A DNA stretch of 64,000 nt, taken from contig LBNX01000003.1 of NCBI GenBank assembly GCA_000989185.1, positions 33,704 to 97,703 on the forward strand. Reading direction: 5' to 3'. This document shows positions 8,080 through 63,776 of the stretch, piece after piece. A program made the translations under genes and the position numbers. A model generated the notes under the pieces. It was given only the letters and a program-made list of their open reading frames with translations, did no database searches and had not been told where the DNA came from. This DNA is from a candidate division TM6 bacterium GW2011_GWF2_28_16 (GTDB lineage: Bacteria > Babelota > Babeliae > Babelales > UASB340). Within the stretch, counting starts at the first letter, position 1. Every line of letters starts with the position of its first letter.

Positions 8080-8169
8080 AAATATTATTTTATCTGGTTT
8101 ACATATTGTTTTAATATGATAGAACTATAACATATTTTTAATTAATAGTGAATTTTGAAGGGTTTTTAT

Positions 8170-9516
8170 ATGAATTTTAGATTAAGAATGGCGATAATAA
8201 TTTTATTAGGATTAAGTGGTTTTTTGGGAATTAAGGCATATTCTCATTGGGATTCTTATCATGATCTTGAAACGGCAAAAAAAGCGGTTAATAATGGGGC
8301 TGATATAAATGCTATAGATCAATATGGGCAGACGCCGTTGATGTTTGCTGCAGAAGATGGACTTGCGGATGTAGCAGAATTTTTAATAAAAAATGGTGCG
8401 GATGTAAATTTTAAAAATAATGAAGGAGAAACATCCTTAATGTTGGCGTGCTATTGTATTGATGATTATAATTATGATGGTCGTGTTCGTATTGTTGAGA
8501 TGTTAATAAAGAATGAGGCCGATTTACATGCAAAAAATGATTCGGGAAGGACAGCGTTAAGGTATGCGGCTGTATCCAATTTTGAATTGGATATCATTAA
8601 ATTATTAGTTGAAAAAGGTGCATTGGTAAATGATCCTCAATCTACTGGGTCTGCATTAATAGATTCACTTTATAACTATGCGATATGGGATATTGAAGAA
8701 TTTAGTGACAAAGATTACCGAAATATTAAGTTTTTGATAAAAAATGGAGCAGATGTAAATGCTAGATTTAAGCCTGATGAAGAATTGGTTTCTGTTCTTG
8801 ATATTGCTATTACTACTGGAAGATTAGAGTTAGTCGACCTGTTAATAGGGTATGGAGCCACATCCGAAATTAAAGCTCCGGATGCATTTGGTTGGGCGGT
8901 TATTCGCAAAAATATGAGTGATATTGAGAAATTGTTAGATCGTGATGGTTGTGATTTAATAACTCAAGAGGATAATTTGGGAATTACTGCTTTTGGTTAT
9001 GCTATTTTGTATAATCATAAAAATATTGTTGAGTTGTTTTTGAAAAAAGATCCAAATATAGTAAAAAATAATGTGGATCTATATTCTGATATTCTTACTT
9101 GGGCTTCTAAGCGGGGATACAAAGATATTGTTGAATCTTTGGTAAAAATAGATAAGAGTTTAACTTCTGTTGATGGTAGTGATGAGGCATTAATAAATGC
9201 TATAAAATTTGGACGGATCGATGTAGCTAAATTTTTGATTGAAAATGGTATTAATGTAAATGCAAAAAATTATGATGAAAAAACGGCATTAATGATGGCA
9301 TTAGAAAATGGTTTGTTTGATATTGCTAAGTTACTTATAAAAAATGGAGCAGATGTAAATAGAAAAGTTGTACTATATGGAGAAGAAATTTCTGCTTTAG
9401 GTTATGCTATTAGTTGGGCCATGCATAATAAAAATTATGAAATGGTTCAATTGCTTATAGTTTCTGGAGCAGATACAAATGTAGAAGCGGCAAAATTCTT
9501 GGTAATAAAGAAATAG
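8170..9516 (+). CDS. Ankyrin-repeat protein with N-terminal membrane/signal segment (3' end apparently frameshifted)
   Basis: There are multiple GADVN...G.T.L..A repeats. I prefer the ATG at 8170, which follows GAAGGGTTTTTAT, to the track start at 8155. The last repeat continues in the -1 frame to 9551. Confidence 0.85.
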   Translation: MNFRLRMAIIILLGLSGFLGIKAYSHWDSYHDLETAKKAVNNGADINAIDQYGQTPLMFAAEDGLADVAEFLIKNGADVNFKNNEGETSLMLACYCIDDYNYDGRVRIVEMLIKNEADLHAKNDSGRTALRYAAVSNFELDIIKLLVEKGALVNDPQSTGSALIDSLYNYAIWDIEEFSDKDYRNIKFLIKNGADVNARFKPDEELVSVLDIAITTGRLELVDLLIGYGATSEIKAPDAFGWAVIRKNMSDIEKLLDRDGCDLITQEDNLGITAFGYAILYNHKNIVELFLKKDPNIVKNNVDLYSDILTWASKRGYKDIVESLVKIDKSLTSVDGSDEALINAIKFGRIDVAKFLIENGINVNAKNYDEKTALMMALENGLFDIAKLLIKNGADVNRKVVLYGEEISALGYAISWAMHNKNYEMVQLLIVSGADTNVEAAKFLVIKK

Positions 9517-10294: not shown

Positions 10295-10300
10295 AAAAAT

Positions 10301-10367
10301 GATCCTCGATCCCTCGATACATCCCCCTTCGCTAAAGCTACGGAGGACACTCGGGACGAACGGGGCA
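10301..10367. repeat. GC-rich repeat, class C with embedded M core
   Basis: GATCCTCGATCCCTCGATACAT-cccCCTTCGCTAAAGCTACGGagg-ACACTCGGGACGAACGGGG. The arms match the mutL copy at 42921-42973. Confidence 0.8.
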
Positions 10368-10389
10368 CTTTAAAATCTTTGAAATTTAT

Positions 10390-10747
10390 GGGGGCGTCAC
10401 GGTTTCGACGTGATATTTGATGTTTTGAGAGCATGTCGAGTTTTGTATGGGAACTCGTAAAAAACATACAAAACAAATAAGTGCAGAACCTGTTTCCGCA
10501 TACGCTTAATAGTAGTTATTAAGTGACTTGTCAGTAAAGCATGTCTATCTGTGGAACTGACTCGTATTAAAAAGATAGAACTCGCTAAGTAGATTTTTTG
10601 GTTTTGTATTTAGCGAAAATCACTAAACTGGCTTTTATTTCAATCTATGCTCTTGAGGTGAAGTAAGAGTATATTCAAGAGATAAACATGTAGTGCTTGG
10701 AACTGATAGTGTTGCGGACATGGGTTCGACTCCCATCGCCTCCACCA
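10390..10747 (+). ncRNA. ssrA: tmRNA (SsrA)
   Basis: The 5' GGGGGCG pairs with CGCCTCC at the 3' end, including the G3:U wobble. GGTTTCGACG is present, as is the T-arm ATGGGTTCGACTCCCAT and an encoded ACCA. The candidate tag ORF is GCA GAA CCT GTT TCC GCA TAC GCT TAA TAG (10483-10512). Confidence 0.9.
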
Positions 10748-10788
10748 GTCTTCGCTCTAATGAGCTACGACTGGCGGGCCAGTACCGG
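10745..10788. repeat. CCA-anchored M-type hairpin at the tmRNA 3' end
   Basis: CCAGTC-ttcgctctaatgagctac-GACTGG, followed by cgggccagtaccgg. The first three bases are the tmRNA CCA. Confidence 0.75.
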
Positions 10789-27221: not shown

Positions 27222-28574
27222 ATGTTTTTTCGTATTATCAAGTTTTTTTGGCCAGATTTATCTAATGAAGAGATAAAAAAATATGGAATGCTTTCCATGG
27301 CTTTCTTTTTCATTATTGGAGCATACTGGTTATTGCGCCCATTAAAAGATGGTTTCTTTTTTAGTGCAGTAGGTGGAAAATATCAACCAACAGCAAAAAT
27401 GCTTTCAGTTCTTATTGTTGGTATTTTGGTAATGGTTTATTCAAAGCTTGTAGATATAGTCGAGAAACATAAATTATTTTATATTTTGGGTTCTATATAT
27501 ACAGTTTTGTTTGCAATAGTTGCTTACGTAGTAAACTTCCCAGTTGAAGGACCGGGCGCTTTAAACCCATCAATCTTAAGATTTTTTGGTTGGGCTTCTT
27601 ACTTTATTATAGAAAGTTTTGGTTCTATAGTAGTTGCACTTTTTTGGTCTTTTACTGCTAGCGTTTCTGATGCTAAATCTGCAAAAAAAGGTTATTCATT
27701 AGTTATAGCCGGTGCTCAAATTGGCGCAATATTTGGACCCTTTATGGCAACATATGCAAAAAGCTGGGGTTTAATGCCGTTATTTTTAATTGGTACAGTT
27801 TCTATAATGCTTATGATGTTTATCATAAACCGTTTTATGGCTGTAACTCCAAAAGAACAATTAGAAATAAATAAACAAGAAGTTAAATCTGAATCTGCTC
27901 CAAAAACAGGCTTTTTAGAAGGTTTAAAACTTTTATTAACAAGACCATATTTATTAGGAATATTTGCAGTAGTTACAATTTATGAAGTTGTTGGAACTAT
28001 TGTTGACTATCAAATGAAGATGCAAGCACAAGCATTGCCTCAGTATGCATCAAGAGAATCTTTAACAGCATTCTTGGGTGTATTTGGTATGTCTGCAAAT
28101 GCATTAGCATTCTTTATGGCTCTTTTAGGTACAGGTTATATGATGAAAAAACTTGGCCTAAGATTTTGTTTATTAACATTCCCTATTGTTTTGGGTCTTG
28201 CTGTTGCTGGTTTATATGCTGCATATACTTGGGGTCATTTTAATCCAATGATGCTATTGTGGGCAACCTTTGGTGTTATGATGATTGCAAAAGGTTTAAG
28301 CTATGCATTAAATAATCCTGCAAAAGAAATGATGTATATTCCAACAAGTAAAGATGTAAAATTCAAATCTAAAGGTTGGATTGATATGTTTGGCTCAAGA
28401 AGCTCAAAAGCTGTTGGTGCAGCATTTACCGATTCATTAAAAGGTAATGCATATAATTTAATGGCTTATGGAACAATTTTATCTTTAGGCTTTATTGGTG
28501 TTTGGATTGTTGTTGCATTCTTTGTAAGCAATAAATTTGAACGTCTTACAGCAGAAGGCAAAATTGTTGAATAA
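27222..28574 (+). CDS. NTT/Tlc-family nucleotide (ATP/ADP) antiporter, paralog 1
   Basis: 450 aa and polytopic. The blocks LLRPLKDGFFF, ESFGSIVVALFWSF...SAKKGY and NNPAKEMMYIP...KFKSKGWIDMFG match Chlamydia/Rickettsia Npt/Tlc proteins as I remember them. Confidence 0.75.
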   Translation: MFFRIIKFFWPDLSNEEIKKYGMLSMAFFFIIGAYWLLRPLKDGFFFSAVGGKYQPTAKMLSVLIVGILVMVYSKLVDIVEKHKLFYILGSIYTVLFAIVAYVVNFPVEGPGALNPSILRFFGWASYFIIESFGSIVVALFWSFTASVSDAKSAKKGYSLVIAGAQIGAIFGPFMATYAKSWGLMPLFLIGTVSIMLMMFIINRFMAVTPKEQLEINKQEVKSESAPKTGFLEGLKLLLTRPYLLGIFAVVTIYEVVGTIVDYQMKMQAQALPQYASRESLTAFLGVFGMSANALAFFMALLGTGYMMKKLGLRFCLLTFPIVLGLAVAGLYAAYTWGHFNPMMLLWATFGVMMIAKGLSYALNNPAKEMMYIPTSKDVKFKSKGWIDMFGSRSSKAVGAAFTDSLKGNAYNLMAYGTILSLGFIGVWIVVAFFVSNKFERLTAEGKIVE

Positions 28575-28607
28575 GATAAATAAATATAATTTTATTTAAA
28601 ATTTTTA

Positions 28608-28638
28608 AGACCGGCATAACTTGCCGGTCTTTTTTTTA
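28608..28638 (+). terminator. Rho-independent terminator between the two NTT paralogs
   Basis: AGACCGGCA-taac-TTGCCGGTCT followed by T8. Confidence 0.7.
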
Positions 28639-28728
28639 TTTAAAATTTTAAATTTATTTTGTATGCTATACTTTCTTCTTGTAAAAAGGTAATTATTTAA
28701 TAACAAATAATACGAAAGTGTAGAGTTT

Positions 28729-30075
28729 ATGTTTACACGATTTTTTAAATTTTTCGGTAAAGATTTAAGTAGTAAAGAAGTTGAAAAATTTAGTCTTCTT
28801 GCTTTAGCATTTTTTTTTACAGTTGGTGGCTACTGGCTTTTAAAAACATTAAAAGACGGTTTCTTTTTTAATGTCGTTGGTGGTCAATTTCAGCCTAGAG
28901 CAAAAATGCTCTCACTTGTTGTTATTTCTATATTAGTACTTGTTTATAGTAAACTTGTAGATATATTTCATAGACATCAATTATTTTATATTTTTGGAAC
29001 TTTTTTTGCAGTTTTTTTTGCACTTGTATCAATATCTTTGGCTTTACCTGTGCATAGTTTTGGCCCGGCTTATTTGCAATATATAAAAATTTTAGGATGG
29101 GCTTCGTACGTTATGGTCGAAAGCTTTGGATCTATTATGATTGCATTATTCTGGTCTTTTGTAACAAGTATTACAGATACAGAATCTGCAAAGCGTGGTT
29201 ATTTTTTAATTGTTGCAGGCGCTCAACTTGGTGCAATATTTGGTCCCTTTTTATCTTGGAATGCTAAATTTTTTGGATTACCAATATTGTTCGCTATGGC
29301 AACAGCATGCATATTAGCTTTAATTTTAGTCATAAAAAAATTTATTTCAGTTACTCCACAAGAAGAACTTATTGGAGGTAAACAAGATATAAGACCTCAG
29401 GAAAAGACAGGCTTTTGGCAAGGTTTAAAACTTATTACAACCAAACCATATTTATTTGGGATTTTATTATTAGTTATTTTTTATGAAACAGTTACAACTA
29501 TAGTTGATTATCAAATGAAAATTCTAGCACAAGCATTACCTGAGTATGCAACTAAAGAAGCTTTGACATCTTTTATGGGTATATTTGGTATGGCGACCAA
29601 TGGTTTATCTTTATTAATGGCTCTTTTTGGTACAGGTTATTTAATTAAAAAATTTGGGTTACGTTTTTGTTTGTTGGCATTTCCGGTTGCTGTAGGGTTT
29701 GCTATAGCTGCATTATATGGAGTTATTAAATTAGATTTTTTAACTACTCAAAGTATGTTATGGGCAACTTTTACAGTTGTAATTATAGCCAAAGGCTTAA
29801 GTTATGCTCTTAATAATCCTGCAAAAGAGGTTATGTATATTCCAACAAGTAGAGACGCTAAATTTAAAGCTAAAGGTTGGATAGATATGTTTGGTGCCAG
29901 AGGTGCTAAAGCAATAGGTTCTGGGTTTAATGAATATTTAATTAGAACTCCAGATGTTTTATTATATCTTGGTTCTATTTTGTCTTTGGGTTTAATAGGT
30001 ATATGGATTATAGTGGCTCTTCTTGTGGGTAATAAATTTAATAGATTAATAAAAAACAATCAGATAGTCGGATAA
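28729..30075 (+). CDS. NTT/Tlc-family nucleotide antiporter, paralog 2
   Basis: 448 aa, colinear with paralog 1 (LLKTLKDGFFF, ESFGSIMIALFWSF...SAKRGY, NNPAKEVMYIP...KFKAKGWIDMFG). Confidence 0.75.
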   Translation: MFTRFFKFFGKDLSSKEVEKFSLLALAFFFTVGGYWLLKTLKDGFFFNVVGGQFQPRAKMLSLVVISILVLVYSKLVDIFHRHQLFYIFGTFFAVFFALVSISLALPVHSFGPAYLQYIKILGWASYVMVESFGSIMIALFWSFVTSITDTESAKRGYFLIVAGAQLGAIFGPFLSWNAKFFGLPILFAMATACILALILVIKKFISVTPQEELIGGKQDIRPQEKTGFWQGLKLITTKPYLFGILLLVIFYETVTTIVDYQMKILAQALPEYATKEALTSFMGIFGMATNGLSLLMALFGTGYLIKKFGLRFCLLAFPVAVGFAIAALYGVIKLDFLTTQSMLWATFTVVIIAKGLSYALNNPAKEVMYIPTSRDAKFKAKGWIDMFGARGAKAIGSGFNEYLIRTPDVLLYLGSILSLGLIGIWIIVALLVGNKFNRLIKNNQIVG

Positions 30076-39150: not shown

Positions 39151-39242
39151 TTTAACTCCTGGGATTAATATTTTAAAATTTGTTATATAATAGCAAAAAT
39201 ATATATATTTTTTAAAAAATATAAAAAGAGTTGGGTTTTAAT

Positions 39243-40256
39243 ATGCAAAAAACGGTTTTAGTGTTGGGCGGTGCTGGTTATATAGGTTCAAATACTGCTT
39301 ATTTATTATCACAAAAAGATTATAACGTAATAATTTTAGATAAATTAATTTATAACCAAAAATTTGATCATAATTTTGCCAAATTAATTATTGGTGATTT
39401 TGCAGATGAAAAAATACTTGAAAATATTTTTAAAACTTACAAAATAGACGCTGTTTTACATTTTGCAGCTTTGATAGAAGTTGGTCTTTCTGTTATAAAT
39501 CCAGTGCAATTTTATAATAATAACGTGATTAAAACTTTAAAATTTTTAGATATTATGCTTTCTTATAATATTAAAAAATTTATATTTTCTTCTAGTTGTG
39601 CCGTATATGGTAACCCTGTACAAATACCAATACCAGAAGAACATAAATATAATCCTATAAGCCCGTATGGTAAAAATAAATTAATTATAGAATATGCACT
39701 TCAAGATTATGCGCATGCGTATAATTTAAATTATATTTCTTTAAGATATTTTAATGCAGCGGGAACTGGCGTCATCCCGGACACTGATCCGGGATCTAAA
39801 CCAAAAATATTTTTAGGTGAACAACATATACCGGAAACACATATAATACCGTTATTATTGCGTGCTATAAAAAATAATAAAATATTTACAATTTTTGGTG
39901 ATAATTATAATACTCAAGATGGAACCTGCGTACGTGATTATATACATGTGCAAGATTTAGCACATGCACATTATTTGGCGCTTGAATATTTAATTGGTAA
40001 CAATAATAACATTAATAATTCGCAAGTCTTTAATTTAGGTACAGGTTTGGGGTATTCTGTAAAAGATTTAATATTATGTGCACAAAAAATAACAGGTAAA
40101 AAAGCAAATATACAAATTTGTCCAAGACGCGAAGGTGACGTAGATACACTTGTTGCAGATAATAAAAAAATAAAGAATACTTTAGGGTGGAGTCCAGAGT
40201 ATTCAAGTTTAGAAAATATAATGCGTAGTGCATGGGAATGGGAAAATAGGAGTTAA
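39243..40256 (+). CDS. galE: UDP-glucose 4-epimerase
   Basis: I prefer the ATG at 39243. It has GGAGYIGS and YxxxK (SPYGKNK). It carries a 27-nt GC-rich palindrome in-frame. Confidence 0.9.
   Translation: MQKTVLVLGGAGYIGSNTAYLLSQKDYNVIILDKLIYNQKFDHNFAKLIIGDFADEKILENIFKTYKIDAVLHFAALIEVGLSVINPVQFYNNNVIKTLKFLDIMLSYNIKKFIFSSSCAVYGNPVQIPIPEEHKYNPISPYGKNKLIIEYALQDYAHAYNLNYISLRYFNAAGTGVIPDTDPGSKPKIFLGEQHIPETHIIPLLLRAIKNNKIFTIFGDNYNTQDGTCVRDYIHVQDLAHAHYLALEYLIGNNNNINNSQVFNLGTGLGYSVKDLILCAQKITGKKANIQICPRREGDVDTLVADNKKIKNTLGWSPEYSSLENIMRSAWEWENRS
39771..39797. repeat. B-short GC-rich palindromic repeat inserted in-frame in galE
   Basis: GTCATCCCGG-acactga-TCCGGGATCT codes VIPDTDPGS. Compare 43001-43030. 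Confidence 0.75.
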
Positions 40257-40257
40257 T

Positions 40258-41610
40258 ATGTCAGCGTTAAGAATTTTAGATATTTCACCAGCAAGAATTT
40301 TAATAGGTTCGTTTTTGTTTGTAATTTTGGCTGGAACGTTTTTGTTGTCTTTGCCAGTATCAAGATTAGTAGATATGCATTTAATAGATCTTTTTTTTAC
40401 GGCTACAACATCTACATGTGTGACGGGTTTATTCACTGTTCCAATGTCATATTTTTCGTTTTTTGGGCAATGTGTAATTTTAGCCTTAATTCAAATTGGT
40501 GGGCTAGGGCTTATGACATTGTCGATATTTTTAGTATCTCTGGTTTTAAATTTAAGTTTGACTACAAAATTTCTTGCAGGGCAAATTTTGGATTTTGCTT
40601 TTTCTGGAAAACTAAAAACGTTTTTAAAAACTATTATAGGTTTTACTATTTTTACAGAAATTATTGGTGCTTTAATTTTGTATAAATCTTTTATTAAAAT
40701 TTTGCCACGAGATAAAGCTATTTTTTATTCTATATTTCATTCTGTTTCTGCTTTTTGTAATTCTGGAGCAAGTTTATTTGAGCCTGGGATTTCTAATTTG
40801 GCACAAGATAGTTTATCACTATTAACAATGGCAGTATTAATATTTTTAGGTGGTATAGGTTTTATAGTTTGGTATGAAGCAGTAAGCAATTTAGTAAATT
40901 ATATAAAAAATTGGTGGAACGAAGAACCAAAAAAATTAACAATGTCTTTGCATACAAAAATTGTTTTAATAACATCTTCAACATTAATTTTTTTGGGATC
41001 ACTTTTATTTTTTATTTTGGAAAGAACTAATACTCTTGCTGGTCTTAGTACTTGGCATCAAATAGTAAATTCTATATTTATTTCTGTTACTGCTCGAACT
41101 GCAGGCTTTGAAAATGTTGATATGAGCAATCTTGGGTTACCAATACTTTTGATATTAATTATTTTAATGTTTATTGGAGCAAGTTCATCTTCTACAGGCG
41201 GTGGCGTAAAAGTTACAACATTTACTGTTTTTGTTGCGACTATTGCTGCAACAATTAGAGGTAAAAATAATGTCGAAATTTTTGGACGAACTATTTCACC
41301 AGAGCAAATTTTTAAAACTACAGCTATTATAGCGCTTTCTCTTAGCTTCGTTTTGGCTACAACTTTTATACTTTTAATAACAGATCCTGAATTTAGTTTT
41401 ATGCAAATTTTATTTGAAGCTGTTTCTGCATTTGCAACAGTTGGACTTTCTACAGGCATTACGCCATATTTTTCTATTTTTGGTAAAATAGTTTTAATGC
41501 TTGCAATGCTTTTAGGACGAGTTGGTGCTTTAACTCTTGTTTTGGCCTTGCGTAAAGGGCAGGAAACTCAGCTTTATAAATATCCAGAAGAACGAGTTTT
41601 GTTGGGTTAA
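40258..41610 (+). CDS. trkH: TrkH/KtrB-family potassium transporter subunit
   Basis: The ATG at 40258 follows AGGAG. The protein is polytopic with repeated pore-loop-like segments (GGLG, STGGGVKVTT). Confidence 0.8.
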   Translation: MSALRILDISPARILIGSFLFVILAGTFLLSLPVSRLVDMHLIDLFFTATTSTCVTGLFTVPMSYFSFFGQCVILALIQIGGLGLMTLSIFLVSLVLNLSLTTKFLAGQILDFAFSGKLKTFLKTIIGFTIFTEIIGALILYKSFIKILPRDKAIFYSIFHSVSAFCNSGASLFEPGISNLAQDSLSLLTMAVLIFLGGIGFIVWYEAVSNLVNYIKNWWNEEPKKLTMSLHTKIVLITSSTLIFLGSLLFFILERTNTLAGLSTWHQIVNSIFISVTARTAGFENVDMSNLGLPILLILIILMFIGASSSSTGGGVKVTTFTVFVATIAATIRGKNNVEIFGRTISPEQIFKTTAIIALSLSFVLATTFILLITDPEFSFMQILFEAVSAFATVGLSTGITPYFSIFGKIVLMLAMLLGRVGALTLVLALRKGQETQLYKYPEERVLLG

Positions 41611-41623
41611 AAATATTGGTTGA

Positions 41624-43708
41624 TTATAATTTTCTTTTAAACTGTTTTTCAATAAAATCTTTATTGAGTATCCAGGTTGTTGGCCTGCCGTGTGGGCAGG
41701 TCAACAAATTTTCTGTTTTATATAAGTTATTAACAATTTCTTGCATTTGCGTTTCAGTTAAAATATCGCCTGCTTTAACTGCAGATTTGCAAGCAATTTG
41801 TGCATGAATTTTGTCGTTTAATTTTTTTCTAAAAAGTTCTTGATCTAGATTTTCAAATTCTCTAATAAATTCTAAAATTTCAAAAATTAATTCTTTTAAA
41901 GATTGATTTTGAATTCCTGCAGGGCTAGATTTTATGGCTAGTTGGCTTTTGCCAAAAACTTCGATATTTATTCCCTGATTAGCTAAAAACTCTTGAGCTA
42001 ATTTTATTTGTTCAAGTTCAAGATTATTTAAATTTATTATTTCTGGAAACATTAATTTGATTCCAGATTTAGTTTCAAAATTTTTAGTTATATTATCGTA
42101 AATTATTCTTTCGTGTGCTGCATGCTGGTCGATAATAATTAAATTTGTTTCGCTCTGAGCGATAATATACGTTGTTAAAAATTGGCCTATTATTTTAAAG
42201 GATCTAGATCCCCAGCCTACGCCCTTCGTGGCTTCCAACTTCGCCAAGGCTTCGATGGACACGTCGGCGGGCAGGCCGGTTTCTCTGGTAGGGATAACAA
42301 ACTCTGTTTGAGTTGGATTTATATTGCTGGATCCTGAATCAAGTTCAGGATGACAAACGGGGTGGGCAATATAACTATTATATTTAAAAGTACGCGACTG
42401 AGATCCCCAGCCTTCGCCCTTCGTGGCTTCCAACTTCGCCAAGGCTTCGATGGACACGTCGGCGGGCAGGCCGGTTTCTCTGGCCGGGATGACAGCGCTA
42501 AGAGTTGTGTTGAGCAAGCCAGAAGACATACTAGGGCTGACTATATCTGTGTTAAGGTTGGTTTCTCTGGTCGGGATGACATTGCCAATAAAACTGCGAA
42601 CGTTTGCATCCAGAGTTTCTTTAATAATTCTTTGCAATAAATTTGTTACAGTATGTGGCTTTAAAAAGCGAACTTCTTCTTTTTTGGGATGAACATTAAT
42701 ATCAACAAAATTACTTGGTGTGTTTATAAAAATAAAACTAGCCGGGAATTTTGCCGGAGGTAAAACTCCAGTGTAGCCTTTAAAGAGTGCCTTATTTAAT
42801 TCTGTGTCTTTTATATAACGATTATTAACAAAAAAGAATATTTGGTGTTTGCCATAACGCCATAGGTTGTGATTACTGGTAAGACCAGAGATTGAGATTG
42901 ATGTATTGTTTTTATTACTAGATCCTGATCCCTCGATACATTTTTCTTGCGAAAAACACTCGGGATGAACGGGTTTAGGAGTACAAGTTGTGGGTTGGTT
43001 GTCATCCCGGGCTTGACCCGGGATCTCTCCATTATTTATCTCTAGCATGCTTTCGCTTAAGCTATGCCCCCAGAGTTGGGCAACGCGATCTTTAATGTTT
43101 TGTGTAGCAGGCGCATTAAGTATAATTTTGTCGTCTTTAAAAAGTTTAAAATTAATATTAATATTGCTTAAACAAAATGCATTAAAAATATTTAATATCT
43201 GGTTAAATTCAGTTTCGTCTTGTTTTAAAAATTTTTTACGAACAGGTAAATTAAAAAAAAGATCATATATTTGTAAATCTGTTCCTATTGGACATGAAAC
43301 ACTTTCTTGAGAGTGTAATTTATTTTCGTAATAAATTATTTTGGTACCAACTTCTTGATTGTTAGTTTTAGTTATTAAAGTTACTTTGCTAACAGCACTA
43401 ATGCTTGCAAGAGCTTCACCTCTAAAACCAAAAGATGCTATATTTTCTAGGTCATTTATATTTTCTATTTTACTTGTTGCGTGCTTTTCAAAACACAATA
43501 AAGCATCTTGTTCGCCCATGCCAGAGCCGTTATCTACAAGTCTAATTAAACTCTTGCCAGAATCTTTTATATATAAATTTATTTGAGTGCTATTGGCATC
43601 TATAGAATTTTCTATTATTTCTTTAACTATATTTGCTGGACGCTCGACAACTTCGCCAGCTGCAATTTTTGCAGCCTGCTCAGGTGCTAATATTTTTATC
43701 TTGTTCAT
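41624..43708 (-). CDS. mutL: DNA mismatch repair protein MutL (linker expanded by repeat insertions)
   Basis: It has the GHKL motifs (ERPANIVKEIIENSIDA, DNGSGM, GFRGEAL) and the C-terminal domain (IIGQFLTTYII...DQHAAHERI). The ORF is intact at 694 aa. Confidence 0.92.
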   Translation of the reverse strand: MNKIKILAPEQAAKIAAGEVVERPANIVKEIIENSIDANSTQINLYIKDSGKSLIRLVDNGSGMGEQDALLCFEKHATSKIENINDLENIASFGFRGEALASISAVSKVTLITKTNNQEVGTKIIYYENKLHSQESVSCPIGTDLQIYDLFFNLPVRKKFLKQDETEFNQILNIFNAFCLSNININFKLFKDDKIILNAPATQNIKDRVAQLWGHSLSESMLEINNGEIPGQARDDNQPTTCTPKPVHPECFSQEKCIEGSGSSNKNNTSISISGLTSNHNLWRYGKHQIFFFVNNRYIKDTELNKALFKGYTGVLPPAKFPASFIFINTPSNFVDINVHPKKEEVRFLKPHTVTNLLQRIIKETLDANVRSFIGNVIPTRETNLNTDIVSPSMSSGLLNTTLSAVIPARETGLPADVSIEALAKLEATKGEGWGSQSRTFKYNSYIAHPVCHPELDSGSSNINPTQTEFVIPTRETGLPADVSIEALAKLEATKGVGWGSRSFKIIGQFLTTYIIAQSETNLIIIDQHAAHERIIYDNITKNFETKSGIKLMFPEIINLNNLELEQIKLAQEFLANQGINIEVFGKSQLAIKSSPAGIQNQSLKELIFEILEFIREFENLDQELFRKKLNDKIHAQIACKSAVKAGDILTETQMQEIVNNLYKTENLLTCPHGRPTTWILNKDFIEKQFKRKL
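42207..42298. repeat. 92-nt GC-rich repeat unit, copy 1, in-frame in mutL
   Basis: gatccccagcctacgcccttcgtggcttCCAACttcgccaaggcttcGATGGacacgtcggcgggcaggccggtttctctggtagggataac. It translates as IPTRETGLPADVSIEALAKLEATKGVGWGS. Confidence 0.9.
42326..42362. repeat. B-type hairpin repeat, in-frame in mutL
   Basis: gctgGATCCTGAAtcaagTTCAGGATgacaaacgggg codes HPELDSGSS. Confidence 0.8.
42402..42493. repeat. 92-nt GC-rich repeat unit, copy 2, in-frame in mutL
   Basis: It differs from 42207-42298 at 4 of 92 positions and lies 195 nt away. It translates as IPARETGLPADVSIEALAKLEATKGEGWGS. Confidence 0.9.
42560..42580. repeat. Solo terminal fragment of the 92-nt unit, in mutL
   Basis: ggtttctctggtcgggatgac matches the end of the 92-nt units and codes VIPTRET. 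Confidence 0.7.
42921..42973. repeat. Class C GC-rich repeat, in-frame in mutL
   Basis: GATCCTGATCCCTCGATACAT-ttttcttgcgaaaa-ACACTCGGGATGAACGGG has arms matching 10301-10367. Confidence 0.8.
43001..43030. repeat. B-short palindromic repeat, in-frame in mutL
   Basis: GTCATCCCGG-gcttgac-CCGGGATCTCTCC codes GEIPGQARDD. Confidence 0.8.
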
Positions 43709-44380: not shown

Positions 44381-45007
44381 TTAAGCTTTAGTTGCAAACT
44401 TTGCTTTAACTGCAAAGACAATGCCTTCAAAAACATTTTTTAAAATGCTGCCTAAAGAAATCCATCTTAGTGAATATCTAATTTCTTTAAATATTTCTAA
44501 AGTTACTTGGGAAGTTAAAATGCCTTTTACTTGTGCTAATGCAACCATTACAGTAAAACAAATTAGACCATATTTGGTTGTAAAAATATTTTTAGCACTA
44601 TTTATAAATAATTTTTTATAAGAATATTTATCTGGGTTATTTTTATTTGAAATAAGCTCTTTAAGAATTTTATTTACAGTTTCTTTATCTTTTTGTGCTT
44701 CGTCACTTTCTTTTGATAGCTCTTTTAATTGGGTATAATTAGTTTTTAAACTATCTTTTAAAGATTTTATTGTCGCATTTTTTAATTCGTGATCTTTATC
44801 TTTTTTTATAAAATTTAATATATCGACTAATTTTTGTTCGCCCAAGTTATTTTTATTGGTAATATTTTGTTTTTCTTCTTGATTTTGTTCAGGGCTTTGG
44901 GTTTTGCTTTTAATATTAAAATTTTTTATTTTATTTTCTAGTGCAATTTCTGTTGCATTTAAATTTGTTAAACAAGCTATTGTTAATGCAAATAAAATTT
45001 TGTTCAC
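44381..45007 (-). CDS. Hypothetical secreted/membrane coiled-coil protein
   Basis: 208-aa ORF with a GTG start, a signal-like N-terminus and a C-terminal hydrophobic segment. Confidence 0.5.
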   Translation of the reverse strand: MNKILFALTIACLTNLNATEIALENKIKNFNIKSKTQSPEQNQEEKQNITNKNNLGEQKLVDILNFIKKDKDHELKNATIKSLKDSLKTNYTQLKELSKESDEAQKDKETVNKILKELISNKNNPDKYSYKKLFINSAKNIFTTKYGLICFTVMVALAQVKGILTSQVTLEIFKEIRYSLRWISLGSILKNVFEGIVFAVKAKFATKA

Positions 45008-45103
45008 GACGTTGCCTTTTAAAAAGTAAAATTAATTAAAAAACGTATAAGAGTGCGATACTAGTATTTATTTTTTTAAATGGCAAGTTGTTTTTTATTT
45101 TTA

Positions 45104-45140
45104 TTACTGGATGCTGAAATAAATTCAGCATGACAAAGGG
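45104..45140. repeat. B-type hairpin repeat
   Basis: ttactgGATGCTGAAataaaTTCAGCATgacaaaggg. It is the reverse complement of the 51576 copy apart from one compensated stem pair. Confidence 0.85.
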
Positions 45141-45166
45141 TTTCGTAATAACTGTAAAATTTTTTT

Positions 45167-45282
45167 GAGCCTGCGCCTGTCCGCCGTAGCTTTAGCGAAG
45201 GCTGGACAAGCAGGCGAATTTATGGTAGCCCAGTGGCAGCCTGCCCGCCATAGCCTTGGCGACGGCTAGGTAAGTCCTGGGC
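45167..45282. repeat. Class A GC-rich repeat (long form, two M cores)
   Basis: GAGCCTGCGCCTGTCCGCCGTAGCTTTAGCGAAGGCTGGACAAGCAGGCG...GGTAGCCCAGTGGCAGCCTGCCCGCCATAGCCTTGGCGACGGCTAGG... Confidence 0.85.
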
Positions 45283-45289
45283 TTATAAT

Positions 45290-47811: not shown

Positions 47812-49365
47812 CTAATTTTGTGCTTGATAATTTTTTATAGTTTCAAAATCTTTTTTGATAGAATGCTCACTTGGAGCCCAATCTAAAAGCTTAGATTTGA
47901 TTGAGTTAACAAAGTTTTTTGATATTGCAACTTTGTTTTCTAATAATTTTATTTTTTCTTTATGCTTGAATACATAAACTTTTAAATTTTTACTTGTAAG
48001 TCTTATGTTTATATCTAAATCTTGTGTATTGTTAGAAATATTTTCTATAGATTTTAAAATTAATGGTGTAAAAATAACAGAAGGTAAACATTCTAAAGGT
48101 TCGCTAGTTTTGTCTTTTAATTTATTCCACGAAACAAACCATAATTCTTTGTGCGTAGGATCTTTTGATTTTTTGCAAAACATTCTACTTGGAGAAAATA
48201 GTTTTTGCCAAAAGCTTTCATAATGTCTGTTTGGTTGAGTTGTAGTGGTATCAAGGCTTAATACCTGCTGTGTATTTACTATTACCTTTTGCATTTCTCT
48301 ATCTGTCATAATTTTTAATTGAACAAATTTTGGTTTATCTTTTATTTTTGTAGTATCAATATTTTTTATTATTTTAAATCTTCGTTTACTGTCTTTTTTT
48401 GTAGAAAACACGTCTAGATCTTGTATTACGTCTTCTTGTGAATATATGCTATAAATATTTTTAAAAAAATTATTTAAAATAAAGCTTTCTGTTTCTGGCT
48501 GCACTGGGCATCCAAACATTAAAAGTTCATTTACTATTAAATTTTTATTTTCTGGAAAATAATCATATTTTTTTTGATTAGTATAAGCTTTAATGGCACT
48601 TTTTTTAGGTAAAGCTTTAATAATTTCGTACATACATTTTAATGATTCATGTTCGTCATTATTAATAGTATTTTTTAATATTAAATCTATATTTTCAAAA
48701 TTATTAATAACAGTATGCACTGCAGCTAAATTTAATGCTAAGTTACCACCATGACTATGAGTTATAATTCTAATTTCGGGAATTTTCTCAAAAGATTTAT
48801 AATTTTCGAGTTCTTCTGAAAGTGAATTATAAAAACGTACAGCTTCTAATCTTCTTCTATTTTGACTTAATAAACCAGACCAGCCAAAGGTATAAAAGTT
48901 GTTATTAATATTTTTATTATTTTCTTGATCAAATTGTTCATAAGCTTTAATTATTGGATAAGCTGCAAAGTGAGTATTTGATGTTGATGCCAAATCAAAA
49001 GTAGGTTCAATTTTAATTAAACCTTTTTGCATAATTGTTTGGCTGCTATAAAAATCTGGATTTTTTCGCATTTTTGATACGGTTTTTTTGTATTTGGTGT
49101 TATCTACATTATCGTCTAAAACTTTAAATAAGTTCATTAATCCAATAACAGATCCAAAAGAACCATGAGTAAAAACAGTTATTTTTTCTTGAGTGTATTT
49201 TTTGGGAACAATATTTGTGATTTTTGGTTGTTTTTTATAATAATTAAATAAAATAACACCAAGTAATATTGTAAAAAGAAGTAAAAAAGATGTAAAAAAC
49301 ACTATAATTCGATGTTTTTTCCCCATTTTTTTATTAATTTTTATATCTTTTTTACTGTTTTTCAT
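47812..49365 (-). CDS. Membrane-anchored alpha/beta-hydrolase (lipase/esterase-like)
   Basis: I prefer the ATG at 49365, which follows GGAGA at 7 nt (MKNSKKDIK...). It has an N-terminal TM, HGSFGS and a nucleophile-elbow-like THSHGGN. The track N-terminus (to 49482) is read from a repeat element. Confidence 0.5.
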   Translation of the reverse strand: MKNSKKDIKINKKMGKKHRIIVFFTSFLLLFTILLGVILFNYYKKQPKITNIVPKKYTQEKITVFTHGSFGSVIGLMNLFKVLDDNVDNTKYKKTVSKMRKNPDFYSSQTIMQKGLIKIEPTFDLASTSNTHFAAYPIIKAYEQFDQENNKNINNNFYTFGWSGLLSQNRRRLEAVRFYNSLSEELENYKSFEKIPEIRIITHSHGGNLALNLAAVHTVINNFENIDLILKNTINNDEHESLKCMYEIIKALPKKSAIKAYTNQKKYDYFPENKNLIVNELLMFGCPVQPETESFILNNFFKNIYSIYSQEDVIQDLDVFSTKKDSKRRFKIIKNIDTTKIKDKPKFVQLKIMTDREMQKVIVNTQQVLSLDTTTTQPNRHYESFWQKLFSPSRMFCKKSKDPTHKELWFVSWNKLKDKTSEPLECLPSVIFTPLILKSIENISNNTQDLDINIRLTSKNLKVYVFKHKEKIKLLENKVAISKNFVNSIKSKLLDWAPSEHSIKKDFETIKNYQAQN

Positions 49366-49390
49366 ACTTTTTCTCCAGATTTTTATTACA

Positions 49391-49476
49391 CGAACGTTTC
49401 GTTCGCCCTGCCTGTGCGCCATAGTCTTAACGACGGCGTAAGCGTAGTCGAAGGGCAAACAGATCAGGGATCTCTC
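49391..49476. repeat. GC-rich repeat in the 5' region of the hydrolase gene
   Basis: cgaacgtttcgttcgccctgcctgtGCGCCatagtcttaacgacGGCGtaagcgtagtcgaagggcaaacagatcagggatctctc. It shares cgttcgccctg with 59278-59327 (reverse complement) and the GGGATCTCTC end with the mutL units. Confidence 0.75.
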
Positions 49477-49743
49477 TTCCAATATTTATCTTATATTTAT
49501 CTTATTAAATAGGGCTAAAAATGCAACCGGTATATTATTATTTGTCAATTTTTTGTATTAAAAATTTTAAAATAGATTCTGGAAGCAATTTTTTGTTTAG
49601 TCTCTGCCATAGCGTATATACAATATAAGGAGGGCATTTGAAAATTTATTTTTAAAGTGCTAATATTTAGGCCTATATGGGATGTTATTTAGGGGTTTTT
49701 AGGGCCATTTTTAATTATGGCAATTTTAATTGGGGGGCTTTTT

Positions 49744-51551: not shown

Positions 51552-51573
51552 GGGCTGCGATTTATCGCAGCCC
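51552..51573 (+). terminator. Hairpin terminator
   Basis: GGGCTGCGA-ttta-TCGCAGCCC followed by TTTT. Confidence 0.65.
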
Positions 51574-51575
51574 TT

Positions 51576-51608
51576 TTGTCATCCTGAATTTATTTCAGGA
51601 TCCAGTAA
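51576..51608. repeat. B-type hairpin repeat
   Basis: ttgtcATCCTGAAtttatTTCAGGATccagtaa. Confidence 0.85.
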
Positions 51609-51677
51609 TTATTTTGTATTTAAACATAAATATTTTCATGACAAATATTTGAAATATGCTAGAATTTAACTCAGTTC

Positions 51678-54412: not shown

Positions 54413-54583
54413 CAAATTTTACCTAATTCATATCTACAATATAATAAAATTTCTACCTGTAATCTTTTATTCTCTCTGTAAATAAAATAATTTTAATATT
54501 TAATATATCGATTCAGTCTGCATTTAAGCATGTTTGGCGTTTGTTTTATTATTTAAAAATGCGAAAATATAGATGTGTAGGTT

Positions 54584-54609
54584 GTCACCTCGGGCTGTGA
54601 CCCGTGGTC
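54584..54609. repeat. Degenerate B-short repeat
   Basis: GTCACCTCGGGCTGTGACCCGTGGTC compared with GTCATCCCGGGCTTGACCCGGGATC (mutL copy). Confidence 0.5.
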
Positions 54610-54654
54610 TTAAATTAATAATATAAAAATTATGGCGGGGGCCTAGGGATTTTT

Positions 54655-56186: not shown

Positions 56187-56258
56187 CATAAGATTTGCTA
56201 GCTTGTATCAACGTAAATAAAAATTGTGTTTAATATTCATAGATTATGGAATTTTAAG

Positions 56259-57137
56259 ATGAAAAATTTTTTTAAAATATATGTGTTGTTTTCTCTCTTA
56301 TTTTCTTCAAGATATGTGTTTGGTATGAGTGATGATGATTATAATCGATATTATTTTAAATCATATTCTAATCAAGTGTTAAGAGATTGTGATTTAAGTG
56401 GTTATAATTTTATTGGTGAAGATTTGGTTTGTACAAGTTTTAATAGAAGTATTTTAAAGCAAGCTAAGTTTTTTAAAGCCAATGCTAATAATGCAACTTT
56501 TATTGATGCCCATTTGGAATCAGCTAACTTGACTGGAGGATTTTTTAGAAGGGCATATTTTACAGGCGCTTATTTAAATAATGTTGTTGCCTACGTCCTT
56601 GTAGAAAAAAAAGGTAAAATTTTTGAATATTGTGCAAATTTTATTAAAGCAGATTTTACCGGTGCTGATTTGACTGGGGCTGTTTTTAAAAAAGCTTATT
56701 TATCTAGGGCTAATTTTGATGGTGCTATTGTTAAAGATTTAGATTTGGAAGGTGCAGTTGGGCTTACAAATGAACAAAAACAGTACATGCGTGACAATGG
56801 GGCAATAAATGTGCCTGCTGATTTGACGGAGCAAGAATTTAAAGAAGAATGGTTAGCTATTAAAAAGAAATATCACAGCACATTAAAAACAATATTTGAT
56901 AATAGTCTTGGATTGTTACTTTTGCCATTAGCTAAAATTGTTAATTTTACAGTTGATTCTGGTGAACGTTTATATGACAAAATATTTATTGGATTAAGAG
57001 AATTTGGCATTAAATCTTGGCAAGAGGTTAAGAATTTAAACGAAAAGACTCAAAGAAAATTGCTCAAATATTTGATTGAAAAATATCCAGAAATAAAAGA
57101 ATATCCAGAAATAGTTGAAGAACAAGTAAAAAATTAG
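56259..57137 (+). CDS. Pentapeptide-repeat protein with signal peptide and helical C-terminal domain
   Basis: I prefer the ATG at 56259. There are about 25 consecutive A(D/N)LXX-type pentads (CDLSGYNFIGEDLVCTSFNRSILKQAKFFKANANNATFIDAHLESANLTGG...). Confidence 0.75.
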   Translation: MKNFFKIYVLFSLLFSSRYVFGMSDDDYNRYYFKSYSNQVLRDCDLSGYNFIGEDLVCTSFNRSILKQAKFFKANANNATFIDAHLESANLTGGFFRRAYFTGAYLNNVVAYVLVEKKGKIFEYCANFIKADFTGADLTGAVFKKAYLSRANFDGAIVKDLDLEGAVGLTNEQKQYMRDNGAINVPADLTEQEFKEEWLAIKKKYHSTLKTIFDNSLGLLLLPLAKIVNFTVDSGERLYDKIFIGLREFGIKSWQEVKNLNEKTQRKLLKYLIEKYPEIKEYPEIVEEQVKN

Positions 57138-61382: not shown

Positions 61383-61424
61383 GCGAAAGCTGGCTGCGCC
61401 ATACGAAGCCTTGGCGAAGTATGG
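61383..61424. repeat. CCA-anchored M-type hairpin at the 3' end of tRNA-Ser(TGA)
   Basis: On the + strand it reads gcgaaagctggctgcgCCATAC-gaagccttggcgaa-GTATGG. The last TGG is the complement of the tRNA CCA. Confidence 0.8.
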
Positions 61425-61513
61425 TGGAGAGAGTGAGATTCGAACTCACGATTCCTGTTTCCAGGAATAACGGTTTTCAAGACCGCCGCATTCAACCACT
61501 CTGCCATCTCTCC
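61422..61513 (-). tRNA. tRNA-Ser (TGA)
   Basis: Reverse complement GGAGAGATGGCAGAGTGGTTGAATGCGGCGGTCTTGAAAACCG...long variable arm...GAGTTCGAATCTCACTCTCTCCACCA. Confidence 0.9.
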
Positions 61514-61610: not shown

Positions 61611-61688
61611 GTCCAGGTCCGCCGTCGCTCTGGCGAGCTTCCACCGACGCTAAAGCTATGGTGGACATGATGGCGTGACAGCCTACGC
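61611..61688. repeat. GC-rich repeat with M core between the two tRNA-Ser genes
   Basis: gtccaggtccgccgtcgctctggcgagcttCCACCgacgctaaagctatGGTGGacatgatggcgtgacagcctacgc. Confidence 0.75.
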
Positions 61689-61721: not shown

Positions 61722-61761
61722 CCGGTCCTGGCATGCCAGCCGTAGCTTTAGCGTAGGCTGG
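61722..61761. repeat. CCA-anchored M-type hairpin at the 3' end of tRNA-Ser(GCT)
   Basis: ccggtcctggcatgCCAGCC-gtagctttagcgta-GGCTGG overlaps the tRNA CCA complement. Confidence 0.8.
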
Positions 61762-61850
61762 TGGAGAGAGAGGGATTCGAACCCTCGATCCCGGTTTCCC
61801 AGGATACTTACTTAGCAGGCAAGCGCTTTCGACCACTCAGCCATCTCTCC
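61759..61850 (-). tRNA. tRNA-Ser (GCT)
   Basis: Reverse complement GGAGAGATGGCTGAGTGGTCGAAAGCGCTTGCCTGCTAAGTAAG...GAGGGTTCGAATCCCTCTCTCTCCACCA. Confidence 0.9.
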
Positions 61851-63647: not shown

Positions 63648-63734
63648 GCCGAAGTGGCGAAATTGGTAGACGCGCGAGACTCAAAATCTCGAGGTGGCAA
63701 CACCGTGTCGGTTCGAGTCCGACCTTCGGCACCA
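63648..63734 (+). tRNA. tRNA-Leu (CAA)
   Basis: GCCGAAGTGGCGAAATTGGTAGACGCGCGAGACTCAAAATCTCG...long variable arm...GGTTCGAGTCCGACCTTCGGCACCA. Confidence 0.9.
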
Positions 63735-63776
63735 GCCGTCGCTCCTGCGGAGCTATGGCTGGCAGGCCAGGACTGG
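63732..63776. repeat. CCA-anchored M-type hairpin at the 3' end of tRNA-Leu
   Basis: CCAGCC-gtcgctcctgcggagctat-GGCTGG followed by caggccaggactgg. The first CCA is the tRNA CCA. Confidence 0.8.

Follow-up and report, generated by a model that had tools for sequence, protein, structure and literature searches.

The window analyzed in this study is a 64,000-nt stretch of contig LBNX01000003.1 (assembly GCA_000989185.1) of the candidate division TM6 bacterium GW2011_GWF2_28_16, with a GC content of 28%. It contains the repair gene mutL (41624-43708, minus strand), which carries short repeat units of 45-65% GC within its coding sequence. A preliminary description, made from the sequence alone, had reported six of these units as in-frame insertions into the interdomain linker of the protein. 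We found that the units are DNA repeats, which were most probably derived from hairpins of the repetitive extragenic palindrome (REP) type.

The mutL open reading frame (ORF) is open through 694 codons, as previously noted, and its product was identified as an endonuclease-type MutL of 694 aa from the ORF, Pfam and PDB matches, sequence motifs and gene order. Pfam placed HATPase_c_3 at aa 26-127, DNA_mis_repair at aa 265-366 and MutL_C at aa 507-649, and the PDB matches were solved MutL N-terminal and C-terminal domains. The protein is composed of an N-terminal domain (approx. aa 1-370), a linker (approx. aa 371-503) and a C-terminal domain (aa 504-694). The best 120 homologs are MutLs and, where an organism is named, they come from Dependentiae, Babeliales or TM6; the nearest of them shares 70% identity with the window protein overall and 80% over the aligned columns.

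An alignment of 24 orthologs revealed that the residues of the GHKL and endonuclease motifs are invariant. The endonuclease motifs are DQHAxxE (aa 527-533), C640-K641, CPHGRP (aa 671-676) and F690/R692, and the invariant residues also include E33, N34, D59, G61, G63 and G94-L100. All features of an endonuclease-type MutL (the GHKL motifs, DQHA(X)2E(X)4E, ACR/K, C(P/N)HGRP and FXR) are present. Together with the Pfam domains, this bears out the earlier statement that the ATPase motifs and the C-terminal domain are intact.

The gene order BamA, two small genes and MutL, with TrkH on the other side, is conserved directly in one comparison locus (L007) and with extra genes in between in three others (L006, L014 and L016), and the orthology of these mutL genes is therefore secure.

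In an AlphaFold2 model built from the ortholog alignment, the folded domains of MutL were predicted with confidence. The predicted local distance difference test score (pLDDT) fell below 50 at aa 233-267 and 376-501, and these are the segments that bear the inserts. The check for disorder proposed in the preliminary description therefore gave a positive result.

A 13-bp palindrome followed by a T-run is present at 41677-41707 (plus strand), inside the 3′ coding part of mutL, and is also found in L006; its minus strand encodes the conserved LLTCPHGRPTTW motif of MutL. It lies 67 nt past the stop codon of the convergent trkH gene and may be a trkH terminator embedded in mutL.

Repeat units within mutL

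The six units reported earlier were all recovered to within a few bases, and the peptides that they encode are exactly as first written. However, not all of them belong to the linker. The stretch 42207-43030, which had been treated as an approx. 830-bp linker, takes in the whole transducer subdomain (aa 265-366). By comparison with Escherichia coli MutL and the Pfam domains, the interdomain linker holds only four units, at aa 377-501 (the solo head, A2, B and A1). The other two, class C and B-short (aa 227-263), belong to the N-terminal domain, where they occupy the turn that joins strands 1 and 2 of the transducer subdomain.

The longest units, A1 (42206-42299, minus strand, aa 471-501, VIPTRETGLPADVSIEALAKLEATKGVGWGS) and A2 (42401-42494, minus strand, aa 406-436, VIPARETGLPADVSIEALAKLEATKGEGWGS), were bounded at 94 nt each. 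They lie 195 nt apart and are 96% identical (blastn E = 1e-30), with the same four mismatches that had been counted before, three of which fall within the first 12 nt. A1, which adjoins the start of the C-terminal domain (FKIIGQ), is a composite of a degenerate head (TGTT-ATCCCTACC), a core hairpin (covariance model match at 42230-42262, 40.4 bits) and the closing sequence GGCTGGGGAT. The same closing sequence ends A2, whose head is TGTC-ATCCCGGCC and whose core hairpin match is at 42425-42457.

The solo head fragment (42555-42588, minus strand, approx. aa 375-385) reads TGTC-ATCCCGACC-AGAGAAACC, with GTCATCCCG at 42572-42580, and encodes GNVIPTRETN. It is 82-85% identical to the head ends of A2 (82%) and A1, has the same orientation and frame as both, and in a shuffle test showed no fold on its own.

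The B hairpin (42328-42355, minus strand) is a CGTC-type REP unit lying in the sense orientation and encodes CHPELDSGSS (approx. aa 452-461). It consists of the tag TGTC, an 8-bp stem (ATCCTGAA/TTCAGGAT), the loop CTTGA and the tail CCA. B-short (43000-43027, plus strand) is a CGTC-type REP antisense to mutL, read as GEIPGQARDD (aa 227-236), with the tag TGTC, the stem ATCCCGGG/CCCGGGAT, the loop CTTGA and the tail CTC. They had been described as a hairpin and a palindrome, respectively, in agreement with their folding scores against shuffled sequences (z = −5.1 for B and −4.8 for B-short; in each case, none of 200 shuffles was as good).

The class C unit (42916-42978, minus strand, approx. 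aa 244-264, KPVHPECFSQEKCIEGSGS), in the beta-hairpin loop of the transducer subdomain, is decayed: its centre is AT-rich and the core hairpin has been lost. The turn that holds class C and B-short comprises 65 residues, compared with 27 in E. coli MutL. The A and C units are closed by imperfect ATCCC...GGGAT arms around a second hairpin module. As 45-70 nt separate these arms, A and C are composites, not simple REPs.

Several units end in GATC-containing doublets, e.g. GGATCTAGATCC after A1 (42199-42212) and GGGATCAGGATCT after C (42920-42935). The copy found in an epimerase gene (see below) also ends in such a doublet (GATCCGGGATCT; 39787-39797), and the empty site of the orthologs contains GATCC. 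The doublets could stem from a target preference or from a duplication, although the pattern varied from site to site. Insertion targeted to GATC was considered and rejected: the doublets are frequent at element ends, but the empty sites gave no consistent support.

A scan with a terminator consensus yielded three sites, compared with 1.6 expected, one of them a weak 7-pair site overlapping the end of A2. Inteins and introns were dismissed, as the units are far too small and lack such motifs, and so were CRISPR or tandem arrays, as the units are dispersed and heterogeneous.

Hairpins outside mutL and related repeats

A hairpin forms the core of both A and full-length C. Its 15-nt loop region (RWAGCYTTRGCGWAG) is conserved, and its 5-7-bp stem varies between copies yet remains complementary. 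The core motif occurs eight times in the window (0.5 expected). Across 14 copies, 92.9% of the stem cells are paired, compared with 77% after shuffling (the observed value was reached in none of 500 shuffles), and slid partners gave 15-52%. Two-sided changes were found in 23 cells, against 7.5 expected, and affected five of the nine pairs.

A covariance model (R1) detected 13 core hairpins in the window, 11 of them in the non-protein-coding 12% (binomial P approx. 1.6e-9, for an intergenic fraction of 10.9%). A1 and A2 contain the sole protein-coding core hairpins. Four of the 11 non-coding hairpins begin exactly at an encoded CCA 3′ end: those of two tRNA-Ser genes (61396-61428 and 61733-61765), a tRNA-Leu gene (63728-63765) and the transfer-messenger RNA (tmRNA) gene (10741-10777). 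In these hairpins the CCA forms the first three stem bases (CCATAC/GTATGG, CCAGCC/GGCTGG and CCAGTC/GACTGG). They could serve as a processing or termination signal, or could reflect a preference for insertion at tRNA ends. Together with a hairpin at 61636-61668, the two at the tRNA-Ser ends make up a group of three located between and after the tRNA-Ser genes.

Relatives of B, C and B-short were also found in non-coding DNA of the window, which substantiates the greater part of the earlier claim that the modules occur in intergenic regions. A non-coding B hairpin (51568-51609, plus strand; TGTC-ATCCTGAA-TTTAT-TTCAGGAT-CCA) lies upstream of a tRNA-Gln gene and is 86% identical to B (E = 1e-6). 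A cluster at 45088-45284 (plus strand), between a small gene ending at 45007 and bamA, contains a degenerate B hairpin (45095-45140, within a B match at 45088-45162) and core hairpins at 45177-45209 and 45241-45273. A full-length class C unit (10300-10372, plus strand; C itself matches 10301-10364), with its core hairpin at 10318-10350, is located upstream of the tmRNA gene, and a degenerate B-short-like hairpin was matched at 54574-54622 (plus strand).

A further relative of B-short, at 39770-39798 (plus strand), is a CGTC-type REP inside the ORF of a GalE-like NAD-dependent epimerase (39231-40256). It has the tag CGTC, the stem ATCCCGGA/TCCGGGAT, a 6-nt loop and the tail CTA. This 30-nt in-frame hairpin adds 10 aa (TGVIPDTDPG) immediately after the conserved YFNAAG motif, and this peptide is missing from three epimerase orthologs. 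Six occurrences of the 9-mer GTCATCCYG, which A2, the solo fragment, B and B-short have in common in their heads, were counted in the window (0.1 expected), four of them in mutL and one in the epimerase gene.

The full-length A unit does not share this distribution, and in this respect the earlier claim did not hold. With blastn, no copy of the 94-nt unit was found outside mutL within the window, where A recurs only as the 15-nt core and the head motif. A search of 185,579 species genomes with an exact 23-mer of the A core returned five chance matches, in actinomycetes, the source genome being outside that collection. A degenerate 21-mer of the A head gave five chance matches in GC-rich contigs of the Joint Genome Institute (JGI) metagenomes. 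Among 5.8 billion proteins searched with the A peptide in six frames, the sole match was a MutL fragment of the same species.

Over the whole window, only tmRNA and tRNAs passed the Rfam gathering threshold and no family matched the core hairpin; the mutL inserts gave no Rfam match with E up to 1. The core motif was also detected in viral-collection contigs (46-60% GC).

In the case of ORF 47812-49482 (minus strand), the mechanical call is 556 aa long, compared with 516 aa in the orthologs of L006 and L007, and the true start is probably near 49362. With that start, the core hairpin at 49412-49444 would be upstream non-coding DNA. Other genes of the window include two tandem paralogous TLC-type ATP/ADP translocase genes (27222-30075; 71-76% nucleotide identity over 300-nt blocks), an ankyrin-repeat protein gene (8155-9516) and a pentapeptide-repeat protein gene (56226-57137), which fit an energy-parasitic intracellular lifestyle.

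The CGTC-tagged REPs described by Di Nocera, De Gregorio and Rocco (2013, BMC Genomics 14:522, PMC3733652) are composed of an unpaired CGTC (TGTC/CCTC) tag, an 8-9-bp stem with complementary A/T residues at positions 1 and 2, a 4-5-nt loop and a 3-nt tail with the consensus CCA. They are dispersed multi-copy repeats, mostly extragenic and without a dedicated adjoining transposase gene. The superfamily spans five phyla and includes the Rickettsia palindromic elements (RPEs) RPE-6 (CGTC-1) and RPE-4 (CGTC-4) as well as Neisseria dRS3 (PMC3733652).

On sequence grounds, B and B-short qualify as CGTC-tagged REPs by this published structural definition. The tag is TGTC in B, B-short, the A2 head and the solo head, CGTC in the epimerase copy and a degenerate TGTT in A1. 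The 8-bp stems of B, B-short and the epimerase copy begin with A-T and T-A pairs. Loops of 5 nt are found in B, B-short and the non-coding B, and one of 6 nt in the epimerase copy. Both B hairpins have the tail CCA. The parallel with Rickettsia drawn in the preliminary description is thus closer than an analogy, since the superfamily with this definition holds RPE-4 and RPE-6 (PMC3733652). B itself is unlike both of these and closer to CGTC-2, a tentative family number that follows from stem and loop size alone and not from the published consensus figure.

The published CGTC REPs resemble the units of the window in further respects: they occur singly or as inverted dimers, and they are found in frame within genes, notably repair genes. 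The survey found intragenic copies to be enriched among genes for replication and repair (uvrABCD, recBCD, polA and dnaE2), and the idea of a mutator effect was raised there in 2013 (PMC3733652). Peptides in the supplement of the survey include RHSELVSGS, in a Sulfurovum ferredoxin-like protein, and VIPAKAGI, from Rickettsia RPE-6 (PMC3733652). The differences are that the phylum Dependentiae and the host gene mutL lie outside the survey, whose text and supplements do not contain MutL (PMC3733652), that the tail is CTC or CTA in two of the window copies, and that A and C have the composite structure described above.

Members of the B type were also found in other bacteria and in viral sequences. 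A Sulfurovum mangrovi plasmid (L038, 2501-2530) carries 26 nt identical to the window B, in frame in a 4Fe-4S protein gene and adjoining a B-short-like hairpin. Inverted pairs with the same tag and stem and other loops are present on Sphingobium plasmids, one of them (L037, 3001-3025 and approx. 3110-3135) with its members approx. 90 nt apart. B-type hairpins with other loops occur in 14 viral-collection contigs (27-67% GC); one of the B-type hairpins (L023, 8402-8428) lies inside the portal ORF of a Mu-like phage, after the portal domain. The GenBank phage collection gave no match to the double hairpin. In the literature, queries with DNA or peptide strings gave no result, and those on Dependentiae or Babela repeats yielded nothing relevant.

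Like the units in mutL, RPE-1 to RPE-10 (Ogata et al. 2000; PMC10969869) are palindromic repeats of an obligate intracellular bacterium with an AT-rich genome; they lie in frame within housekeeping genes unrelated to one another, add extra peptide at fold-compatible positions and have copies in non-coding DNA too (PMC10969869). The same kind of in-frame insertion was observed here, with 694 open codons, intact motifs and inserts confined to segments with pLDDT below 50. In contrast to the RPE-1 type, which is approx. 100-150 bp long and has a conserved peptide, the units described here are mostly 28-94 nt, modular, read in several frames and clustered in one gene. The likeness is one of anatomy.

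[quoted passage not shown] The units of the window differ from them in being smaller and in having core-module stems that vary while the loop is conserved; no parent insertion sequence was identified here.

GC-rich palindromic mobile clusters are also known from an AT-rich organellar genome, i.e. the GC clusters of yeast mitochondrial DNA, along with the double-hairpin elements of fungal mitochondria. The yeast clusters occasionally lie in frame inside a protein gene (var1). They differ from the window units in their organellar setting, their unrelated sequences and the different host biology. We know of no transposase for CGTC REPs.

MutL orthologs and an independent contig

The alignment of orthologs suggested in the preliminary description revealed that relatives lack the peptide segments of the units. 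L007 is without all six, and L006, the closest relative, is without A1, B and B-short. At the A2 junction, the 27-nt flank is found in L006 too, but the element joined to it there is another one, with a GTCATCCCGG head. B-short and extra flanking codons are specific to the lineage of the window.

Class C, which is absent from L007, occupies the same codon position in L006, where 56 nt align at 87.5% identity (E = 1.5e-11) and the centre is decayed and AT-rich in the same way; its insertion appears to predate the split of the two lineages. The C-type modules of the window, L006, L007 and L016 align as DNA in both orientations relative to mutL, and are translated in at least three ways across the MutLs (PFVPS..EGGCIEGS, DPSIH.. 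and FAKAT..). The heads are read as VIP, CHP/RHP, SS or antisense.

Among 121 Dependentiae MutLs, median lengths are 12 aa for the N-terminal loop (range 5-80; 49 aa in the window) and 95 aa for the linker (range 54-182; 130 aa in the window). The N-terminal loop is clearly enlarged in 15 of these proteins, and six have an insertion in a loop of the ATPase domain.

The MutLs of L014 (10001-12274; 757 aa) and L016 (2754-5174; 806 aa) contain 74-98 extra residues in the ATPase domain, after the equivalent of aa 115. These inserts are made of the same hairpin modules (LNQVQDD...CHPELDSGSS; DPSIH...), at a site that is less obviously permissive than the linker. The trkH gene of L016 (6765-8270) encodes 501 aa, compared with 450-460 aa elsewhere, and has a head motif at 8219, near its 5′ end; the additional length is due either to another in-frame insertion or to an over-extended start.

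An independent JGI contig (L013, from sample 3300037046), 99.6% identical to the window, contains the solo head, A2, B and A1 in the same order. The two differ by an in-frame 30-nt deletion inside A2 in L013, which indicates that the length is still changing with the frame kept. Just past the mutL stop codon, the contig (approx. 1017-1090) diverges completely from the window (41560-41623). The two strains therefore have different genes downstream of mutL, that of the window being trkH.

Origin of the inserts

The units in mutL are nucleotide-level repeats and not protein repeats, as the preliminary description had proposed. This conclusion follows from the existence of non-coding copies, the differences between orthologs (which do not have the peptide segments), the several orientations and frames, and the second gene that has been hit. 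We consider it probable that REP-type hairpin repeats spread into mutL and are tolerated there as disordered peptide at two permissive sites.

The AT-rich Dependentiae/Babeliales genome carries small GC-rich stem-loops of the REP kind, normally in non-coding DNA. According to this scheme, several copies would have landed in mutL, or duplicated there, where extra peptide is harmless: the beta-hairpin turn of the transducer subdomain would have received class C first and B-short later, and the disordered interdomain linker the solo head, A2, B and A1. Selection would keep only those copies that preserve the reading frame and contain no stop codons, and these would be translated as disordered peptide. 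We infer that the spread was transposition-like, that the inserts are neutral and in what order the events occurred.

Tolerance of the inserts is well supported, whereas an effect on repair is unsupported. The link to repeat stability suggested in the preliminary description is speculation, of a kind already voiced in 2013 for REPs of other repair genes. Thus, of the two fates proposed in the preliminary description, tolerance agrees with our results and domestication does not: the inserts are predicted to be disordered, C is decaying and A2 is polymorphic. The process is genome-wide, given the in-frame REP in the GalE-like gene.

Several observations weigh against the spread of REP-type repeats into mutL as the whole explanation. 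The full A unit was seen nowhere outside mutL (in the window, genomes, metagenomes or proteins), so that it may not be mobile as a unit. The solo head has the orientation and frame of A1 and A2, and the downstream flanks of A1 and A2 are weakly similar (13 of 14 nt, p approx. 0.04); both points favour a local duplication rather than separate insertions. Neither a transposase nor a RAYT (REP-associated tyrosine transposase) domain was detected among the 48 ORFs scanned in the 64-kb window. No target-site duplications or nucleotide-level empty sites were definable, the orthologous sites being too diverged, and that MutL is made and active is a prediction.

One alternative, which we regard as quite possible though somewhat less probable than its converse, is local duplication or gene conversion. 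It assumes that one A unit entered the linker and that A2, A1 and the solo head arose from it within the gene, giving approx. 3-4 events in total. Besides the common orientation and frame of the three heads, the marginal similarity of the downstream flanks and the lack of an A copy elsewhere, it is favoured by the 96% identity of A1 and A2, whose differences are concentrated (three of four) in the first 12 nt, suggesting conversion of the rest, and by the ongoing in-frame length change of A2 in L013. On the other hand, the repeats end abruptly at 94 nt, with no relationship between their upstream flanks (p = 0.65-0.87), the REP-like ATCCC...GGGAT closure is that expected of a discrete element, and the absence of A elsewhere is weak evidence, because the source genome is outside the searched collections. 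Six units are present, as first described, but they represent fewer than six insertion events, since C is older and common to L006, and A1 and A2, with or without the solo head, may have been duplicated.

The concentration of the repeats in a repair gene, to which the preliminary description drew attention, holds true for this clade. Across six genomes (141 kb, approx. 120-130 genes), all 11 coding-located core hairpins and 13 of 21 head motifs are in mutL, with four more head motifs just upstream of mutL in L016; this excess is partly inflated and only indicative, as three of the five comparison loci were picked for their MutL inserts and shared ancestry links some of the copies, which also counts against our reading. 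The excess is best explained by a combination of an unusually long unconstrained linker with old insertions that were kept and with duplications of a local or nested kind.

It might instead reflect selection, if the inserts altered MutL activity or linker length and reversible in-frame variation gave rise to mutator or hyper-recombining subpopulations. We judge this unlikely. It would accord with the numbers given above, with the in-frame 30-nt polymorphism between two samples of one species, and with the preferential occurrence of REPs in uvrABCD, recBCD, polA and dnaE2 and the mutator idea attached to it (PMC3733652). However, the inserts are found only where disorder is predicted, no catalytic motif is damaged, and the inserts decay and differ between lineages like neutral passengers; in addition, the choice of loci was biased and the copies are not independent, and the proposal is one by analogy.

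A related and equally improbable idea, again by analogy, is that repeats are preferentially retained in repair genes of this Dependentiae clade for the tuning of repair, so that in-frame gain, loss or recombination of units would alter linker length or hairpin load, generate transient mutator or hyper-recombining lineages and thereby aid the spread of the repeats. Candidate events of this kind are provided by the 195-nt direct repeat of A1 and A2 and the 30-nt polymorphism of A2. Linked to it is the suggestion that the conserved-loop hairpin of A and C might be a functional nucleic-acid structure, e.g. a protein-binding or processing signal.

Evolution of the linker at the protein level, by low-complexity or repeat growth unconnected with dispersed DNA repeats, is very improbable: it is in line with the established variation of linker length and sequence in all MutL lineages, but the same modules are present in non-coding DNA, in both orientations and several frames, as well as in an unrelated enzyme gene and in other phyla, and they are twice as rich in GC as the genome. 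Finally, repeats commonly cause misassembly, but a chimeric join or a broken gene, the alternative raised in the preliminary description, is hardly credible here, as the independent JGI contig has the same unit order over the whole linker and C-terminal domain, class C is common to L006, which comes from a different data source, and the 694 open codons retain the conserved motifs.

REP- and RPE-type repeats inside genes are a known phenomenon, and those of repair genes were described in 2013; what is new is that MutL and the Dependentiae serve as their hosts. The mutL case extends translated repeats of this type to obligate intracellular bacteria of a little-studied phylum, and it cautions that in annotation the insert peptides should not be taken for lineage-specific protein motifs. 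The three sites of MutL that have been hit in separate lineages, i.e. the ATPase-domain loop, the first transducer beta-hairpin and the linker, form a natural map of the tolerance of this protein for 10-100 extra residues. The mutL gene of these bacteria is also a tractable case in which the repeat load of a repair gene may prove either neutral or capable of affecting the mutation rate.

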